From an uncultured Actinomycetota bacterium (lineage in GTDB: Bacteria > Actinomycetota > Humimicrobiia > Humimicrobiales > Humimicrobiaceae), in the NCBI GenBank assembly GCA_964478985.1, contig CAYZJW010000003.1:1-40313 (forward strand): a stretch of 40,313 nucleotides of DNA. The letters run 5' to 3'. Below, piece after piece: positions 31,310 to 40,313 of the stretch. A model generated the notes under the pieces. It searched no databases. It was not told the DNA's origin and saw nothing but the letters and a program-made list of their open reading frames with translations. Made by a program: the position numbers and the translations under genes. Numbering within the stretch: the stretch's first letter is position 1; every line of letters starts with the position of its first letter.

Positions 31310-33031
31310 ATGGATAAGAAAGACGTTGTAAGGATACTTGACCAGACTGCTACCCTGCTGGAGCTGGGAGGCGCTGATTTCTTCAAGGTACGGGCCTACA
31401 GGGGAGCATCCAGGGCCCTGGAGTCTTCTGGCATGGAGACTGATATCAACACAAAAGCAAAAGACCTGCAGGCGACAAAAGGCATAGGAAAAAACATTGC
31501 CGGCCATATTGTCGAGCTCATCTCAAACGGTACATTTGCAGAATATGAGCGGCTCAAGGCCTCTACCCCGCCGGGACTTCTGGTCATGCTGAGGATACCT
31601 GGCATGGGCGCCAAAAAGGTTAAATACCTTTTTGATAATCTGGGCATATCCGATATGGAGACACTGGAGCAGGCCTGCCTGGAAAACAGGCTGTCTGTGC
31701 TGCCCGGCTTCGGAAAAAAGACCCAGGATAATATTCTAAAAGGCATACATGCAGTAAAGAGATACCAGCAGAAGTTCCTTTATAGCCAGGTAATAGGCCA
31801 GGCAGAGTTAATACTGGAGAAATTAAGGAAGGGCGGGTCCGTAATAAGGGCCAGCCTGGCAGGAAGTCTGAGGCGGAAGAAGGAGATAATAAAGGACATA
31901 GATATAGTTGCCTCAACCGGTGAGCCGGAAATGGTGATGGAACTCTTTACCGGCCTGGATGATGTCGAGGATGTCATCGCCAGGGGAAGCACCAGATCCA
32001 GCATCAGGCTTGCCAGTGGCATAAATGCAGATATAAGGACGGTAGAGGATTGGCAGTTTCCATATGCCCTGCATCATTTTACCGGCAGCAGGGAGCATAA
32101 TACTGCCATGCGGTCCCTGTCAAAGAAGTCCGGCATAAGGATGAATGAATACGGCCTGTTTAAAGGCAAAGAACTTATTAAATGCAAAAGCGAGAAAGAT
32201 ATTTTCGGGGTATTCGGCATGCAGTATATACCTCCGGAGCTGAGGGAAAATCATGGTGAGGTAGAAGCAGCCCAAAAAGGCCAGCTGCCTGCCCTGGTAG
32301 AGCCGAGCGATATAAAGGGAATAATACACATCCACACCACCTATAGTGACGGTAAGATGACTCTGGAGCAGGCGGCAAGAAAAGCCATGGATATGGGATT
32401 TTCTTATATCGGGATAAGCGAGCACAGCCGTTCCGCCAGATATGCCGGGGGATTGAAAGAAGAAGATATTGATAACTATCTTACCGAGATCGACAGGCTT
32501 AATGAAAAGCTTGAAGGTTTTAGGGTATTTAAAGGCATAGAATCTGATATATTAAATGACGGAAGCCTTGATTATGATGACCGGACACTGGAAAGATTTG
32601 ATTTTGTCATAATTGCCATCCATTCCAATTTCAATATGTCCAAAAATGATATGACAAAAAGGATAATAAAGGCTTTGCAGCATCCCTATGCTTCCATCCT
32701 TGCCCACCCCACCGGAAGGCTGCTTCTTGCCCGCGACCCTTATGAGGTGGATATGGAAAAAATAATAGACGCAGCCGCTCAGAGCAATGTAGACCTGGAG
32801 CTAAACAGCAGCCCCTTCCGCCTGGATCTTGACTGGCGTTATGGCAGATATGCAAAACAAAAGGGCGTAAAGGTCTTTATAGATCCTGATGCCCACACGC
32901 TGGACGGCCTTTATGACTACAGTTTCGGAGTAAATATTGCCCGCAAGGGGTGGCTGGAGGCAAAGGACATCGCCAATACCATGGATGCCGGTAAAATGGC
33001 GGATTATCTGGAAAATAAAAGGAAAGGATAA
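31310..33031 (+). CDS. polX: family X DNA polymerase / 3'-5' exonuclease with PHP domain (canonical PolX)
   Basis: KVRAYRGASRAL; three HhH motifs (TKGIGKNIAGHI, IPGMGAKKVKYL, LPGFGKKTQDNI); GSLRRKKEIIKDIDIV; ADIRTV; HHFTGSREHN. PHP motifs HIHTTYSDG, ISEHS, ESDI, AIHS, LAHP, DPDAH. Confidence 0.9.
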   Translation: MDKKDVVRILDQTATLLELGGADFFKVRAYRGASRALESSGMETDINTKAKDLQATKGIGKNIAGHIVELISNGTFAEYERLKASTPPGLLVMLRIPGMGAKKVKYLFDNLGISDMETLEQACLENRLSVLPGFGKKTQDNILKGIHAVKRYQQKFLYSQVIGQAELILEKLRKGGSVIRASLAGSLRRKKEIIKDIDIVASTGEPEMVMELFTGLDDVEDVIARGSTRSSIRLASGINADIRTVEDWQFPYALHHFTGSREHNTAMRSLSKKSGIRMNEYGLFKGKELIKCKSEKDIFGVFGMQYIPPELRENHGEVEAAQKGQLPALVEPSDIKGIIHIHTTYSDGKMTLEQAARKAMDMGFSYIGISEHSRSARYAGGLKEEDIDNYLTEIDRLNEKLEGFRVFKGIESDILNDGSLDYDDRTLERFDFVIIAIHSNFNMSKNDMTKRIIKALQHPYASILAHPTGRLLLARDPYEVDMEKIIDAAAQSNVDLELNSSPFRLDLDWRYGRYAKQKGVKVFIDPDAHTLDGLYDYSFGVNIARKGWLEAKDIANTMDAGKMADYLENKRKG

Positions 33032-33043
33032 GGAAGAAAGAAA

Positions 33044-33697
33044 ATGAACAATATCTTTAAACCGGCTATAGAAAATATTGACAGGATAGTGAAAACACTG
33101 GAAGACACCTACCCGGATGCCCTCCGTTCCACCCTGGACCATAAGGATGCTTTCCAGCTCCTGGTGTCTACCATACTGGCTGCCCAGAGCACTGATAAGC
33201 TGGTAAATACCATTACCCCGGACCTGTTTGAAAAGTATAAGGGACCACAGGACTTTGCCGATGCCGACCCCGGGGTCATGGAGCAGGATATAAGGAAGAC
33301 TGGATTTTTCCGCAATAAGACAAAAAGCATAATGGGAGCCGCCCGGGAGATAGTAGAGAGTTTTGAAGGCAGTGTACCCGGCAATATGAAGGACCTCCTG
33401 ACCCTTCCCGGAGTGGGAAGAAAGACGGCCAATGTAGTGCTGGGAGAATGCTTTGGAAAACAGGTCATTGTGGTAGACACCCATATGAAGCGGATATCCC
33501 GTCATATAGGGCTTACCGATAATACTGATCCCGATAAGATAGAATCTGACCTGGCAGGGATAATACCGGAAAAGGCCCGTACAAGCTTTTCGCATAAGAT
33601 AGTCCGGCACGGCAGGACCATATGTATAGCCAGGAGGCCGAAATGCAGCGAGTGCCCTATCCTTAAATATTGCCGTTATGGGCAGGAGAATGCCTGA
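33044..33697 (+). CDS. nth: endonuclease III (HhH-GPD DNA glycosylase/AP lyase with 4Fe-4S cluster)
   Basis: LVSTILAAQSTD, LPGVGRKTANVVL, VDTHMKR, and the cluster loop CIARRPKCSECPILKYC. Confidence 0.92.
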   Translation: MNNIFKPAIENIDRIVKTLEDTYPDALRSTLDHKDAFQLLVSTILAAQSTDKLVNTITPDLFEKYKGPQDFADADPGVMEQDIRKTGFFRNKTKSIMGAAREIVESFEGSVPGNMKDLLTLPGVGRKTANVVLGECFGKQVIVVDTHMKRISRHIGLTDNTDPDKIESDLAGIIPEKARTSFSHKIVRHGRTICIARRPKCSECPILKYCRYGQENA

Positions 33698-35388: not shown

Positions 35389-35805
35389 TTACATCTCCTT
35401 TGCCAGCGTGGACCTGGCCACAGCGGCATGCTTTACACCTTTTGCCACCTTGAGCCTGGCTTCCAGGTCATATACTTTCTTTATCTTTCCCTTTAACGCT
35501 ATTATCTCCAGGCAGTTGCTGTGGTCAAGGTGCACATGCTGGCTGGATATTATTATGTCATGGTAATCATGCTGTATGCTTACCAGGTTTTCCACCAGAT
35601 CATGGTGGTGATGGTCATATACCATTATTATGGCTCCAGCCACTTCCTCATCTTCATCTTCCCAGGCCGTCTCTACCAGCTCCTTCCGCACCAGGTCCCT
35701 TAAGGCTTCGGACCGGTTCCGGTAACCCTTTTCCCTTACATACCCGTCAAGAGCCGAAAGCAGGTTTTCCTCCATAGATACACCGAACCTTTTTAACTCT
35801 GCCAT
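35389..35805 (-). CDS. nikR: nickel-responsive transcriptional regulator NikR
   Basis: N-terminal ribbon-helix-helix (RFGVSMEENLLSALD...RNRSEALRDLVR). The C-terminal nickel site DHHHHDL...QHVHLDHSNCLEI is nearly superimposable on E. coli NikR (HHHHDL...LHVHINHDDCLEI). Its ATG overlaps the upstream stop (TAATG). Confidence 0.9.
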   Translation of the reverse strand: MAELKRFGVSMEENLLSALDGYVREKGYRNRSEALRDLVRKELVETAWEDEDEEVAGAIIMVYDHHHHDLVENLVSIQHDYHDIIISSQHVHLDHSNCLEIIALKGKIKKVYDLEARLKVAKGVKHAAVARSTLAKEM

Positions 35806-36569
35806 TACTTACTCCTCTCAAGCAGGGCATACAGGCTTATATGCTTTTTGGGATCAAATTGCTCACTGCCCCCTGTGCCTGTTAACCTTATTTTTTTAAA
35901 TCCGGCATTCTTTGCCATACTCTTAAACATATTGACCTTAAGCGTGGCCAGGTATGATGAGTTTACAAAAAAATCATGAGCCGAGCTTCCCTTTAGCCTG
36001 GTTATTATAAAGTCTACCCTGGTCTTTACCTTTCCATACTGGAAATGCTTAATAAACACATAGGTAAACCCGTCTTTTTCAAATACCTTCGGGGAATAAT
36101 AATCATTTTTATCTATTATGGTAGAACTGAAATTTAAGAACTGCAGTACTGCCAGGCCGCCGTCTGCCAGCCTCTTTCTCATATTTTTCAGCGCCATTTT
36201 TATCTTTTTCCTGTCTCCCAGTATGGGAAGAGTGTTGCCCAGGGAAGTTATAAGGTCAAAATCCCCTGGAGGGAGGCTCTCCAGTTCCTCAAAACCTTTC
36301 TGATAAAGGGTCACATTTTGAGCCTTTATGGTATTTTTACCGGCAAAATCCACCATATCAGGATCGGGATCGATAGCCGTCACTTCCCGGGCATACCCGG
36401 CAAACATCTGGGCATGATGCCCGGTTCCGCATCCTATCTCCAGGACCCTGCCTATTTTCCTCTCATTGAATATTTTTTCGAAGAAGTGTCTTTCCTTATC
36501 CATCCTTTTGTCCCAGTCTACCTGCAGGTCATAGTACTCCGGGTTGAAATCAAAATTTTTTGTGGCCAT
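35805..36569 (-). CDS. class I SAM-dependent methyltransferase (small-molecule/protein type)
   Basis: VLEIGCGTGHHAQ (motif I), AIDPDPDMV, DLITSLGN, ADGGLAVLQ. I see no DPPY/NPPY-type DNA methyltransferase motif. Confidence 0.8.
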   Translation of the reverse strand: MATKNFDFNPEYYDLQVDWDKRMDKERHFFEKIFNERKIGRVLEIGCGTGHHAQMFAGYAREVTAIDPDPDMVDFAGKNTIKAQNVTLYQKGFEELESLPPGDFDLITSLGNTLPILGDRKKIKMALKNMRKRLADGGLAVLQFLNFSSTIIDKNDYYSPKVFEKDGFTYVFIKHFQYGKVKTRVDFIITRLKGSSAHDFFVNSSYLATLKVNMFKSMAKNAGFKKIRLTGTGGSEQFDPKKHISLYALLERSK

Positions 36570-36575
36570 TTCTAC

Positions 36576-38930
36576 CTACTTCATCTCTATTACTTTATTA
36601 ACTGTATATTTTCTGGAAAGGCCGGCAATCTCATCTTTTACCGAAAAATATACTATAGACCAGCCCTTATGTGCCAGTTTCTTTAAAACCTTAAACTGGT
36701 TCTCGAGCCTGCGGCTGTCAGATGACAGGAAGGCATCATCTATTATGAAGAACCCCCTTCCCTCCCCCAGCATCTCCTCAGATATGGCTATCCTTATGGA
36801 AAGGAAAAGCTGGTCATATGCTCCTTTGCTAAGTTTTTCTGCAGTAAGGGTATTTCCTCCTGCATCCGCTACTGTCACTTCACCGGCCTGGCTGTCAAAC
36901 CTGACGTCTTTATATTTATTCCCGGTTATGTCTGCGAATATGTCAGAGATCTTAAGTTTTTCAAAAAGTTCCGATACCTTGGTCTCTTCCGTATTTTTTA
37001 TATCCTCAAAAATCCTTATTGCTTCAGCTGCCAGGTTCTGCTGCCGGTCTATCAGCCCTGCAAATCTATTACAGTGATCGACAGCTTCCCGGAGCCTCTC
37101 CAAATTGTTTATCTCGAATGGCCCCAGCCTGTCAAGGTACCGGGGAAGGTCCAGGGCGGCAAACTTTCCCTGGAATCTGTTAAGTTTATCCCTGTGTTCT
37201 TCGAGGCTTATTTTAAGCCTGCCCTCCTTTTCCTCCAGGGCTTCCAGTTCCGACCTTAAGTCTTCCAGCTTCTCCTTACCGGCTTCTTCATCCTCCGGTA
37301 CAGGCTCTCCATCCGGCCTTAAACCGGACAGCTTTTCTTCCCAGGTAGTGATGGCGTCACCGAATCCTTCCGCCATCTCTCCCAGGTCCCTGTCAGGATC
37401 ATATCCAGGGATATCCCCTCCCGGCATCTCCATCAGCGACCTGGCCAGCGACATCATCTCCGAAGCCGCCCTGTTTCTCAGCCGCCTCTTTTCATTGAAC
37501 TGGTTTATATCACTTATGCCAAGACTTCCCATTATCTCTTCCAGTTCCAGCTCATATGACTTTTTATCCCTTATATAATCTTCCAGTGCCGATGATAACT
37601 TTTTATCATCCATTTCCAGCAGTCTTAACTGGTCATCAAGACGGTCCCTTTCACCGGTTTTTTCCCTGTACCCATCATCAAATGCCGCTGCCGCCGGCAG
37701 CACTTCTTCCAGGCCCTCTATCCGGAAACCTATCTTCCTGAACTCGTTTTCCAAAAGTTTTTCTTCAGCAGCAAAATGGCCTGCCTTTATGCCTGCCCGG
37801 TTTACTATGAATACCGCCAGGCCCGCAATAAGTAGGAGTACTGGCAGTATAAAGGAGTATAAAAGACTGCCGGTGGGTATATATACTGCCGGGAAGCTGA
37901 GCGGTGCCAACAGAAGCAGTATTACAGTTATCACCCTGGAAAAGGTCTCCGGCTCCTTTACCTCCTCTGCCTTACGGCGGTTAAATATCTCAAGTTCTGC
38001 CTTCAACCGGTCTATAAGGGCTTTCTTTGATTCAAGCGCATCCAGTTTTCCCTGGACCTGCGCCAGCTTTTCCTCCAGCCCTGTCCTTTGTTTTATATTC
38101 TTTTCCTGGTCGGAAGTAGTGCGGGAGACCCTGCTGCCGAGACTGTCGATATTTATTATAAGCTCTGATATTTTTTCATATTTTGCCTGGCTGAAATCCT
38201 TATGGTCCTTATATATTTTCCACCTGTCCCTGAGGCTCCGGAGGGTTGAACTATTTTTCCTGTATTCCTGCCACTGAAGCGTCCGCAGGCTTTCCTTTAT
38301 TTCCTTCCTGGTACTTTTTATCTTTTGCCTGGCAGTCAACTGTTCCAGTTCCAGGTAATCAAGTTTTTTATCTTCAGATTCCTCTATGTACTCCTTTGCC
38401 TGGCAACTAAGATCTACTGCCAGTGTGCGAAGCTGGCTTATCTTGCCGTATTTTCTGTCATTTGAAAGCCTGGAATCGCTGGAAGGGTTTACCAGCCTTC
38501 CGAAATCCTGTATATAAGACATGATATCTTCTATCTGTTCCAGCCTTAGACCGGTAAGCTTATCGGTTATATTCCTAAAATATCCGCACTCATCCCTCAG
38601 GGTAAGGTCGCTGTCACGGATAATAAAAATATTCCTTAAGTCCATCCCTCCCAGGTCCATATGCCTTTCCAGGCCTTTTCTTATGTCTACTTTCTGCTCT
38701 TTGCCCTTATTGTCCTCAAAAAGTATATATCCTTCCGGCTCCTGGCTGACTCTGTCAATATGTTCAAAATCCCTGGTCTTTCCCTCCAGCAGCATCTTGA
38801 TGACTGCATCTATGGTAAGGGTCTTTCCGGACTCATTAGGGCCCATTATTACCTGCAGTCCGGGACTGATATCAAGTTCCAGGCTGTTTATGGGTCCGTA
38901 CTTTATAATATGTATCTTTTTTATCCTCAT
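36576..38930 (-). CDS. Rad50/SbcC-like AAA ATPase (YhaN-like) with a central two-helix membrane hairpin
   Basis: Walker A GPNESGKT at aa 30-37. Long coiled-coil arms. aa 331-377 (nt 37800-37940) VITVILLLLAPLSFPAVYIPTGSLLYSFILPVLLLIAGLAVFIV are hydrophobic. C-terminal signature and Walker B: LSKGAYDQLFLSIRIA...FFIIDDAFLSSD. No CxxC hook. Confidence 0.8.
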   Translation of the reverse strand: MRIKKIHIIKYGPINSLELDISPGLQVIMGPNESGKTLTIDAVIKMLLEGKTRDFEHIDRVSQEPEGYILFEDNKGKEQKVDIRKGLERHMDLGGMDLRNIFIIRDSDLTLRDECGYFRNITDKLTGLRLEQIEDIMSYIQDFGRLVNPSSDSRLSNDRKYGKISQLRTLAVDLSCQAKEYIEESEDKKLDYLELEQLTARQKIKSTRKEIKESLRTLQWQEYRKNSSTLRSLRDRWKIYKDHKDFSQAKYEKISELIINIDSLGSRVSRTTSDQEKNIKQRTGLEEKLAQVQGKLDALESKKALIDRLKAELEIFNRRKAEEVKEPETFSRVITVILLLLAPLSFPAVYIPTGSLLYSFILPVLLLIAGLAVFIVNRAGIKAGHFAAEEKLLENEFRKIGFRIEGLEEVLPAAAAFDDGYREKTGERDRLDDQLRLLEMDDKKLSSALEDYIRDKKSYELELEEIMGSLGISDINQFNEKRRLRNRAASEMMSLARSLMEMPGGDIPGYDPDRDLGEMAEGFGDAITTWEEKLSGLRPDGEPVPEDEEAGKEKLEDLRSELEALEEKEGRLKISLEEHRDKLNRFQGKFAALDLPRYLDRLGPFEINNLERLREAVDHCNRFAGLIDRQQNLAAEAIRIFEDIKNTEETKVSELFEKLKISDIFADITGNKYKDVRFDSQAGEVTVADAGGNTLTAEKLSKGAYDQLFLSIRIAISEEMLGEGRGFFIIDDAFLSSDSRRLENQFKVLKKLAHKGWSIVYFSVKDEIAGLSRKYTVNKVIEMK

Positions 38931-38933
38931 ATG

Positions 38934-40007
38934 CTACCTGGCTTTTATCTTTGAAAACTGCGATATTACCATCTCTTCCATTTCCTTTTCAAATCCTTCT
39001 TCCAGCCCCGCCTGTTTAAGTCTTTCTTTAAATGCTCCGTACAGGGGGTCTTCCAGTACAGAACTTATATCACGGTACTGTTCCACGACCTCGATTGCCA
39101 TATTCTTTCCCGTATTTTTCTGCACCAGCTTTTTTATGATACCAGCCAATTCCTTCTCGCCAGAGGATATGAATCCGCCCATATTAATGCATATATCAAC
39201 CCTGTGGCCGCTGTATTTTTTTAATGTCTTTTCCAGCTCATTCAATATATCGTATTCCATTCCCGGCGAGAAGCCTATTTCAATATCCTCATAGTAGAAG
39301 GAATCCAGGGGAAGAAATTTTATACTTTCGCTGGAAGGTCTTTCTGTATCCAGAAGCACGGCAGTACGCCTGCCTTTCTCCTTCCTGGAGACAGATACAG
39401 GACTTCCCGGGTAAAGGAAAAGGGTCTTTTCCGAAAGGCGGTTTTCCACAGTCCTGGAATGGAAATGCCCGGCAAACACATAATCAAATCCAATATTTCC
39501 CAGTATCTTCGAATTGACAGGTAGATATGCCTGCTTCTTCTCATCCCCGTATCCGTCATCAGCCAGGTATGGCATGTCAAGAGTGCAGTGTATTACCAGA
39601 ATATTTATTTTTTCTCCGTTAATGCTCCCACTGAGGGGGCCGGCCAGGTCATTGAAAACCTGGTTTGCATATGGGACTGCAGTTATCCTTACTTCTTCGA
39701 AGTCGATGACCTCGAAAGGATGCCGGTTCAGTACTTTGATGCTGTCACCGAAATTCATATCGGCCCTGTATGCATCCATATCATGGTTTCCGGGAATTAC
39801 CATTATGGTAAACGGCAGGGAGGACAGCATCTTTCTAAGCCGGGGCCTTAAGATGTCTGCTTCCTCATTGGAGTCAAACATATCACCGCTAACCACCAGA
39901 AGGGCTGCCTTTTCTTCCTCAGCCTTTGCCAGTAGATCCTGCAATGCTTCCAGGCTTTCCTTTCTTCCGGAGCTTAGATGTATATCTGATGTGTGGATTA
40001 TTCTCAA
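38934..40007 (-). CDS. Mre11/SbcD-like metallophosphoesterase nuclease (YhaO-like)
   Basis: Phosphoesterase motifs in order: HTSDIHL, VVSGDMFD, IPGNHD, LVIHCT, FAGHFH. TTG start 1 nt after the upstream stop; its stop lies 3 nt before the ATPase ATG. Confidence 0.85.
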   Translation of the reverse strand: MRIIHTSDIHLSSGRKESLEALQDLLAKAEEEKAALLVVSGDMFDSNEEADILRPRLRKMLSSLPFTIMVIPGNHDMDAYRADMNFGDSIKVLNRHPFEVIDFEEVRITAVPYANQVFNDLAGPLSGSINGEKINILVIHCTLDMPYLADDGYGDEKKQAYLPVNSKILGNIGFDYVFAGHFHSRTVENRLSEKTLFLYPGSPVSVSRKEKGRRTAVLLDTERPSSESIKFLPLDSFYYEDIEIGFSPGMEYDILNELEKTLKKYSGHRVDICINMGGFISSGEKELAGIIKKLVQKNTGKNMAIEVVEQYRDISSVLEDPLYGAFKERLKQAGLEEGFEKEMEEMVISQFSKIKAR

Positions 40008-40008
40008 T

Positions 40009-40313
40009 CTATGCCTGCCTGTCCCTGGCTTTATCCAAAAAAGGTAGCTTTTTTCCCGTTATGAATCCGATGGCCTGGGTGGAGGCGATTATTTTATCAT
40101 CCTGGTTCTTTACGATAATATTATAGGTGCTGACAGTCTTGCCCCTGCTTACTTCTGAAGCTGAGGCAGTCAGTATGTCTCCAGGCCTGGAGGGTCTTAT
40201 ATAATTTATCTCGATATTCAGTGCTACTGTTATTATACCGTATGAATTGGCAGCTGCTCCGAATGCCACATCCACCAGGGAGAATATGGCTCCGCCATGG
40301 GTGGTGGAATGAA
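40009..40313 (-). CDS. PaaI/hotdog-fold thioesterase, C-terminal part (N-terminus outside the window)
   Basis: The frame stays open to the window edge. My translation upstream of the track start gives HSTTHGGAIFSLVDVAFGAAAN, the PaaI HGG...D..G motif. The track 'M' is an internal GTG. Confidence 0.75.
   Translation of the reverse strand, partial: HSTTHGGAIFSLVDVAFGAAANSYGIITVALNIEINYIRPSRPGDILTASASEVSRGKTVSTYNIIVKNQDDKIIASTQAIGFITGKKLPFLDKARDRQA

Follow-up and report, generated by a model that had tools for sequence, protein, structure and literature searches.

Two adjacent genes on the minus strand

The subject of this analysis is a pair of adjacent genes in a 40,313-nucleotide (nt) stretch of DNA from an uncultured Actinomycetota bacterium of the family Humimicrobiaceae (contig CAYZJW010000003.1, positions 1 to 40,313); we refer to the whole stretch as the window. 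One gene (36576..38930 (-)) encodes a 784-amino-acid (aa) SbcE/YhaN-type Rad50-like ATP-binding cassette (ABC) ATPase. The gene directly upstream of it on the same strand (38934..40007 (-)) encodes a 357-aa SbcF/YhaO-like nuclease of the Mre11/SbcD type, and its stop codon is separated from the ATG of the ATPase gene by a gap of 3 nt. A first-pass annotation, made from the letters of the window, had described a Rad50/SbcC-like ATPase with a two-helix membrane hairpin at the position of the zinc hook, preceded at a distance of 3 nt by an Mre11/SbcD-like nuclease gene. The gene arrangement is as described, the nuclease ORF (open reading frame) giving Metallophos/SbcD-like matches, and the structural reading of the ATPase is supported by its motifs, fold and hydrophobicity. 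No minus-strand terminator-like site was found between the two genes, in a scan in which promoter-like sites were fewer than in shuffled sequences. The nuclease and ATPase genes are probably co-transcribed.

The nuclease matches Pfam Metallophos with 60 bits and TIGR00619 (sbcD) with 56 bits, the latter score being under the cut-off of the model. Its metal and catalytic residues D8, H10, D42, N74, H75, H181 and H183 do not vary among 71 aligned nucleases. In an alignment with E. coli SbcD that spans 350 residues, they fall opposite D8, H10, D48, N83, H84, H222 and H224 of the E. coli protein. A further histidine, H140, is kept in 70 of the 71 aligned nucleases and has no aligned histidine in E. 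coli SbcD. Judged by this motif set, the nuclease is catalytically intact. It contains no hydrophobic segment (maximum of 0.87 in a 19-residue Kyte-Doolittle window) and is predicted to be soluble.

A Rad50-like ATPase without a zinc hook

To describe the ATPase family we used an alignment and profile of 21 diverse homologues, designated A1. Walker A (GPNESGKT, aa 30–37; 38820..38843 (-)), the ABC signature (LSKGAYDQ, aa 700–707; 36810..36833 (-)) and Walker B (FFIIDDAF, aa 727–734; 36729..36752 (-)) begin at aa 30, 700 and 727, in keeping with the N-terminal Walker A and C-terminal signature and Walker B noted earlier. In A1, residues G30, N32, E33, G35 and K36 of Walker A, L700, S701, G703, D706 and Q707 of the signature, and D731 and D732 of Walker B are invariant. 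Walker B carries Asp-Asp, versus the Asp-Glu of Rad50/SbcC. At the H-loop position (36636-36650 (-)) the sequence is YFSVK; its Lys is nearly invariant, and a His is absent. The Asp-Asp of Walker B and the missing H-loop His together suggest an altered, perhaps slow, ATPase cycle.

Pfam matches of the ATPase are to AAA_23, AAA_15 and AAA_27. The AAA_27 match (PF13514) scores 35.9 bits against a gathering cut-off of 22, and covers profile positions 1–50 and aa 1–47 only; it is a weak criterion, since SbcC/RecF-type genes in control genomes are matched by this model too. Curated Rad50, SbcC, SMC and RecF models give trivial scores. The NCBIfam Rad50 models reach 16–26 bits against cut-offs of 700–1087 (NF041034, 26.4 bits vs 1000; PRK02224, 18 bits vs 1087), the SbcC model TIGR00618 has no match at the ATPase locus, SMC_N scores 23.6 bits, under its cut-off of 40, and the SMC hinge domain (PF06470) has no match in the ATPase. 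Searched against PDB sequences, profile A1 matched only the C-lobes of Rad50 ATPases.

An AlphaFold2 (AF2) model built on the A1 alignment, with a mean predicted local distance difference test score (pLDDT) of 82.9, has a split head and long helical arms. Its head lobes extend up to about aa 160 and again from about aa 660, with helices 164–310 and 407–658 between them. Foldseek placed Chaetomium Rad50 (7zr1) first among matches to this model, followed by Smc5/6, MukB, JetC and LmuB; Rad50 is thus the best PDB match of the ATPase by both sequence and fold. The first-pass annotation had put about 650 aa of coiled coil between the motifs, with the hairpin at the midpoint. The motifs are ~670 aa apart, but part of this distance belongs to the head lobes in the AF2 model. 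For the hairpin the coordinates stand and the symmetry does not: because the head lobes reach ~aa 160 and resume at ~aa 660, the hairpin lies at 0.45 of the protein length, and the arm on its C side (about 280 aa) is ~110 residues longer than that on its N side (about 165 aa). The C-side arm (36957-37791 (-), aa 380–658) contains a variable, acidic stretch of low confidence at aa ~501–551, with a nearly invariant Trp530 inside it.

In the prevailing view, Rad50 and SMC proteins require dimerisation at the apex, via a hook or a hinge. The window ATPase shares with Rad50–Mre11 and SbcC–SbcD the ABC head, an antiparallel coiled coil and a metallophosphoesterase nuclease partner, but it has no zinc hook, whereas E. 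coli SbcC has its CxxC at aa 506. Only three cysteines are present (115, 176 and 620) and no CxxC occurs anywhere in the 784 aa, so the earlier remark that the arms have none is correct. At the position taken by the zinc hook in Rad50/SbcC, the apex of this ATPase is hydrophobic and transmembrane-like.

The apex hairpin has membrane-type character

Hydrophobicity was scanned in 19-residue Kyte-Doolittle windows with a threshold of 1.6. Two stretches of the ATPase exceed it, aa 328–354 (maximum 2.39) and aa 348–383 (maximum 2.64), and the two hydrophobic helices reported at nt 37800–37940 are indeed the only hydrophobic segments of the protein. Helix 1, VITVILLLLAPLSFPAVYIP (aa 333–352; 37875..37934 (-)), is modelled by AF2 as a helix at 330–353. 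It ends with Pro352, after which a turn of sequence TGS (aa 353–355; 37866..37874 (-)) is predicted to face outside. Helix 2, LLYSFILPVLLLIAGLAVFIV (aa 356–376; 37803..37865 (-)), is helical at 356–371 in the same model. None of the 45 residues at aa 333–377 is charged (no D, E, K or R), compared with 40% in the flanking arms; the chance expectation for such a stretch is ~6e-8.

The two segments also stand out on the Hessa biological hydrophobicity scale, which we applied in its position-independent form. The deltaG of helix 2 is about -1.7 kcal/mol, the lowest of any 19-mer in the ATPase, and that of helix 1, about +0.9 kcal/mol, is the second lowest. In all 21 members of A1 the hairpin segments are the two 19-mers with the lowest deltaG (-3.1 to +3.1 kcal/mol), while the third-best 19-mer lies at +4.4 to +12.7 kcal/mol. 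Eisenberg mean hydrophobicity is 0.78 for helix 1 and 0.91 for helix 2; the hydrophobic moments are low (0.16–0.18, with 0.16 for helix 1), and neither helix has a polar face.

Across relatives, the hairpin flanks (12 residues on each side) contain 6.8 K+R per 24 aa against a background of 4.1, and 3.4 D+E against a background of 4.4. Flanks rich in K+R and poor in D+E are consistent with a cytoplasmic location of both hairpin ends, as expected from the positive-inside pattern. No other topology would let both arms return to one head. A proline is present in the turn window of 55 of 78 family members, versus ~30% expected. The sequences of the two helices are poorly conserved in A1, whereas their length (~20+20) and hydrophobicity are kept; free drift of this kind is typical of lipid-facing helices.

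These properties also bear on a different arrangement, in which two hairpins would stay outside the membrane and pack at the apex into a buried, soluble knot of four helices, which would serve dimerisation and replace the zinc hook by protein alone. The apex is the dimerisation site in Rad50 and SMC proteins, helix 1 is rich in prolines with modest pLDDT, and in B. subtilis the related protein SbcE, fused to yellow fluorescent protein (YFP), forms foci on the nucleoid as well (PMC2811018), all of which would suit a knot. The polar face seen in soluble bundles is, however, missing from 45 uncharged residues of low moment, the helices drift with only hydrophobicity and length retained, the flanks follow the positive-inside pattern, and both full-length SbcE and its central domain are insoluble in E. 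coli (PMC2811018). Mainly because of the missing polar face and the positive-inside flanks, we consider a soluble knot quite unlikely. Insertion of the hairpin into the membrane, with both ends in the cytoplasm, would account better for the sequence.

The hairpin is the normal design of the family

The first-pass annotation had implied that the hairpin is a rarity, and this was not borne out. The first homologue search returned 70 proteins, and the central block was present in nearly all of them, down to 25% identity. We then scanned one genome per species: 342 genomes encode a relative, 80 of these were fetched, and they yielded 77 full-length proteins. All 77 have the hairpin, at a median relative position of 0.46. 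Counting bacteria and archaea together, these hairpin-bearing relatives represent more than 20 phyla. The phyla with relatives include Actinomycetota, several Bacillota classes, Chloroflexota, Spirochaetota, Planctomycetota, Thermotogota, Acidobacteriota, Bacteroidota and Thermodesulfobacteriota, and relatives are also found in candidate phyla and in archaea (Halorussus, Thermoplasmatota and Methanobacteriota).

An exhaustive hidden Markov model (HMM) search of 1.84 billion cluster representatives (50% identity) gave 728 proteins at E<=1e-30. Among the 145 best full-length representatives of the 728, the hairpin is present in 144, and the single exception has a milder version of it. No apex or central CxxC was found among the 77 relatives and the 145 cluster representatives. 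Divergent forms of ~715 aa, which make up the weaker matches within the class of the host bacterium, also have both the hairpin and the upstream nuclease. We conclude that the hairpin is the normal design of a widespread, little-studied SbcE/YhaN family, of which the window copy is an ordinary member.

Some relatives are longer, at ~890 aa (L052, L080 and proteins P0091, P0092 and P0216), and match the profile in three stretches, which suggests insertions of ~110 residues in their arms. A chromid of Pseudosulfitobacter sp. DSM 107133 (L084:2031-5474) encodes a 1147-aa protein annotated as 'YhaN family protein', with an overlapping 'DNA repair exonuclease' gene upstream; this protein has neither a hydrophobic block (Kyte-Doolittle maximum of 1.44) nor a CxxC. 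The anchor is accordingly the rule in the hairpin-bearing clades, and not in everything that the Prokaryotic Genome Annotation Pipeline (PGAP) labels 'YhaN family'.

Kinship with B. subtilis YhaN/SbcE

The first-pass annotation had named the B. subtilis YhaO/YhaN (SbcF/SbcE) pair as the closest described relative and had left it undecided whether that pair shares the hairpin. A B. subtilis-type yhaN was recovered by searching metagenome contigs with the reverse primer given in PMC2811018. The recovered 935-kb contig (L083) has the synteny prsA-yhaM-yhaN, and the YhaN that it encodes (P0089) contains KQKK-TVIAAGMLFIVLFSLLQQWIPAISFGAALIVYWLVSG-K at aa 459–498 of 959. This is a hairpin of 38 residues with a Kyte-Doolittle maximum of 2.06; the protein has no CxxC. 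The hairpin is therefore shared by the described relative.

Comparison of A1 with the B. subtilis-type YhaN by hhalign gave a probability of 99.05% (E 2e-18). In hmmsearch with A1, the B. subtilis-type YhaN scored 101.6 bits, the Pseudosulfitobacter 'YhaN family protein' 68.4 bits and P. furiosus Rad50 45.7 bits, and E. coli SbcC gave no hit. Both comparisons agree with the kinship that had been proposed. By these sequence comparisons, the window ATPase belongs to the YhaN/SbcE superfamily, as part of a shorter subfamily of ~770–790 aa.

The B. subtilis SbcE (YhaN)/SbcF (YhaO) pair (COG4717, AAA_27) resembles the window pair in the split ABC head, the long arms and the absence of CxxC. Its B. 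subtilis-type ATPase likewise has two hydrophobic helices in a central block, a proline in the turn between them and a Walker B with Asp-Asp (FQLDDSF at the aligned position), and an sbcD-like nuclease gene lies immediately upstream. The two ATPases differ in length (784 aa in the window, about 960 aa in YhaN), align strongly in the C-terminal lobe only, and match AAA_27 to different extents, over aa 1–47 in the window ATPase versus the whole 200-residue domain in YhaN (97.9 bits, positions 2–203). Their arms are asymmetric in the former and near-symmetric in the latter. A yhaM-type exoribonuclease gene lies downstream in the B. subtilis context but not at the window locus. Unlike YhaN, the window ATPase falls in the separate ~770–790-aa subfamily that is spread across many anaerobic bacterial and archaeal phyla.

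The only experimental paper on SbcE/SbcF in the literature that we searched is that of Krishnamurthy et al. (2010; PMC2811018), who named YhaN SbcE and YhaO SbcF, and in which the hydrophobic central domain was already noted. They described SbcE as having no CxxC and a 'unique central domain', the first half of which is hydrophobic and which contains a conserved proline. Full-length SbcE and the central domain showed complete insolubility in E. coli. B. subtilis sbcE mutants were sensitive to DNA double-strand breaks (DSBs) and reduced in transformation, and SbcE formed foci at the poles of competent cells, with SbcE-YFP foci also on the nucleoid (PMC2811018). The searched literature on SbcE contains no statement or test of a membrane anchor and nowhere calls the segment transmembrane; a search for Rad50-like or SMC-like proteins together with membrane anchoring gave nothing relevant.

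The nuclease and ATPase form a two-gene unit with a housekeeping distribution

Wherever upstream DNA is present (72 loci), a nuclease gene directly precedes the ATPase gene and has the same orientation. When flanking ORFs were clustered, no family other than the nuclease occurred in more than 16 of 80 loci. From the invariant pairing and the lack of any other recurrent family, it follows that the functional unit is the two-gene pair, and that the apparent 'five-gene operon' at the window locus is lineage synteny.

The closest named relatives of the host genome (1.62 Mb, 90.6% complete) are Actinomycetota of Candidatus Humimicrobiaceae, and an archaeal origin was rejected for this reason. The genome encodes neither a canonical SbcC nor a canonical SbcD; the window nuclease is its one SbcD-like match. 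Its SMC_N-type genes encode a short SMC, RecN, RecF and UvrA-like ABC proteins, and the pair is the only Mre11/Rad50-like system found in it. In a sample of the class, 64 of 81 genomes have a match, as do 41 of the 48 high-quality genomes and 17 of the 18 genera. A distribution of this kind is typical of housekeeping genes for repair and not of a defence island.

This distribution is relevant to the proposal of a defence role, in which the pair, stationed at the membrane, would destroy incoming phage or plasmid DNA as a relative of the SMC-like/OLD-like ATPase–nuclease systems of the Wadjet, Lamassu or Gabija type. The ATPase gives weak PADLOC matches to mad8, AriA, PtuA, GajA and LmuB, and anti-phage phosphoesterases are matched by the nuclease; JetC and LmuB are among the Foldseek matches, and the overall SMC-like fold and the association with a nuclease are common to Wadjet JetC, Lamassu LmuB and the window pair. 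A position at the membrane would suit interception of DNA on entry, and SbcE is found at the competence pole (PMC2811018). The PADLOC matches are, however, limited to the N-terminal P-loop (about aa 1–60, 19–35 bits). A full-length match together with partners of Wadjet, Lamassu, Gabija, PARIS or Septu was not obtained, the P-loop matches remaining at <=35 bits, and the window pair differs from Wadjet and Lamassu in having no kleisin/KITE or LmuA partners and no link to mobile elements. No recurrent defence partner genes lie beside the pair. Homologues are absent from 50,697 phage records, and plasmid records give a single one, on a 571-kb chromid, which is the 'YhaN family protein' without a hairpin. 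In contrast to patchy defence islands, the pair is chromosomal and near-core in the class (17/18 genera), with stable synteny by nth and polX, and no second Mre11/Rad50-like system was found in the 1.6-Mb genome. On account of this distribution and context we regard a defence function as unlikely. The suggestion in the first-pass annotation that the pair might act in phage injection or conjugation is, for the same reasons, not supported.

A proposed membrane-anchored DNA-end processing complex

We propose that the pair forms a membrane-anchored SbcEF-type complex for DNA-end processing, a reading that we consider probable. The sequence features, their conservation across the family, the pairing of the two genes and the relationship to YhaN are observed. 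From them we infer, as follows, that the hairpin enters the membrane with a defined topology, that it dimerises within the bilayer and that the complex processes DNA ends. The ATPase would fold back on itself, so that its N- and C-terminal lobes come together in a single head, from which an antiparallel helical arm extends. At the tip of the arm, the helix-turn-helix of two ~20-residue hydrophobic helices would be inserted in the cytoplasmic membrane, leaving both arm ends, the head and the nuclease in the cytoplasm and only the 3-residue turn outside. Two ATPase subunits and a nuclease dimer could then act as a membrane-tethered, ATP-driven clamp that captures and trims DNA ends within roughly 20–30 nm of the membrane, an arm length derived from about 140–200 helical residues per arm. 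Association of hairpins within the bilayer may replace hook-mediated dimerisation of the apex. Being apparently the only Mre11/Rad50-type system in a reduced genome, the pair probably serves general DNA-break repair.

Several points weigh against this proposal. Helix 1 contains three prolines and has a slightly positive Hessa deltaG (+0.9), and the AF2 confidence in the hairpin is only 55–71 (pLDDT). The alphaproteobacterial 'YhaN family protein' that has no hairpin indicates that the superfamily as a whole can do without the anchor. The 2010 study reports nucleoid foci too and does not call SbcE membrane-bound or transmembrane (PMC2811018), and a later paper treats SbcE as cytosolic. With Asp-Asp rather than Asp-Glu in Walker B and no H-loop His, the ATPase cycle may differ from that of Rad50, and 'clamp' is an analogy.

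The last of these features, a non-canonical Walker B and H-loop, would also be compatible with a pair that has no role on DNA at all and instead couples a membrane-anchored coiled-coil ATPase to a phosphoesterase in an envelope or nucleotide-related task. Metallophosphoesterases have many substrates, and the NCBIfam SbcD and Rad50 scores of the pair are far under the cut-offs. Yet the nuclease has retained the set of Mre11/SbcD motifs, its alignment with E. coli SbcD spanning 350 residues, and the ATPase is matched best by Rad50 in both sequence and fold. The locus has lineage synteny with DNA repair genes, and B. subtilis sbcE mutants are DSB-sensitive and impaired in transformation (PMC2811018). 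Since the Mre11 motifs are intact, and in view of the phenotypes in B. subtilis, a non-DNA function seems highly improbable.

The proposal of a membrane-anchored end-processing complex can be extended. In the extended form, the hairpin truly anchors the ATPase in the membrane and does so in functional replacement of the zinc hook, SbcEF complexes are Mre11–Rad50 machines stationed at the inner face of the membrane, and in lineages without SbcCD all end processing of this type is tethered to the membrane; to this we give about an even chance. A real anchor would mean that the processing of DNA ends is linked to the cell envelope in this family, with a bearing on DNA uptake, break tethering and nucleoid-membrane contacts. 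A large prokaryotic family (728 clusters at 50% identity, E<=1e-30; 342 species-level genomes) has a membrane-type hairpin in place of the hook or hinge. The window copy adds one further example, and with it a reduced genome that appears to rely on the pair alone.

Neighbouring genes and a short SMC-type protein

Genes for PolX (pol beta thumb and PHP) and endonuclease III (nth) converge on the pair. The pair is also flanked by a PaaI-type thioesterase gene upstream and by genes for a class I S-adenosylmethionine (SAM) methyltransferase and NikR downstream. The arrangement of polX, nth, thioesterase, methyltransferase and NikR genes (31310-33697 (+), 35389-36569 (-) and 40009-40311 (-) in the window) is kept in ~9–16 related Actinomycetota metagenome-assembled genomes and in none of the other phyla. 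We rejected the thioesterase, the methyltransferase and NikR as members of the system, since outside the Actinomycetota clade they do not occur beside the pair.

A single SMC-type protein was found in the host genome, encoded outside the window (G000:C2:33621-35963 (+)). It is about 781 aa long and matches SMC_N from end to end (223 bits), with no match to the SMC hinge and no CxxC. As far as its domain matches indicate, it may be a short, hinge-less SMC of the Humimicrobiia-like lineage.

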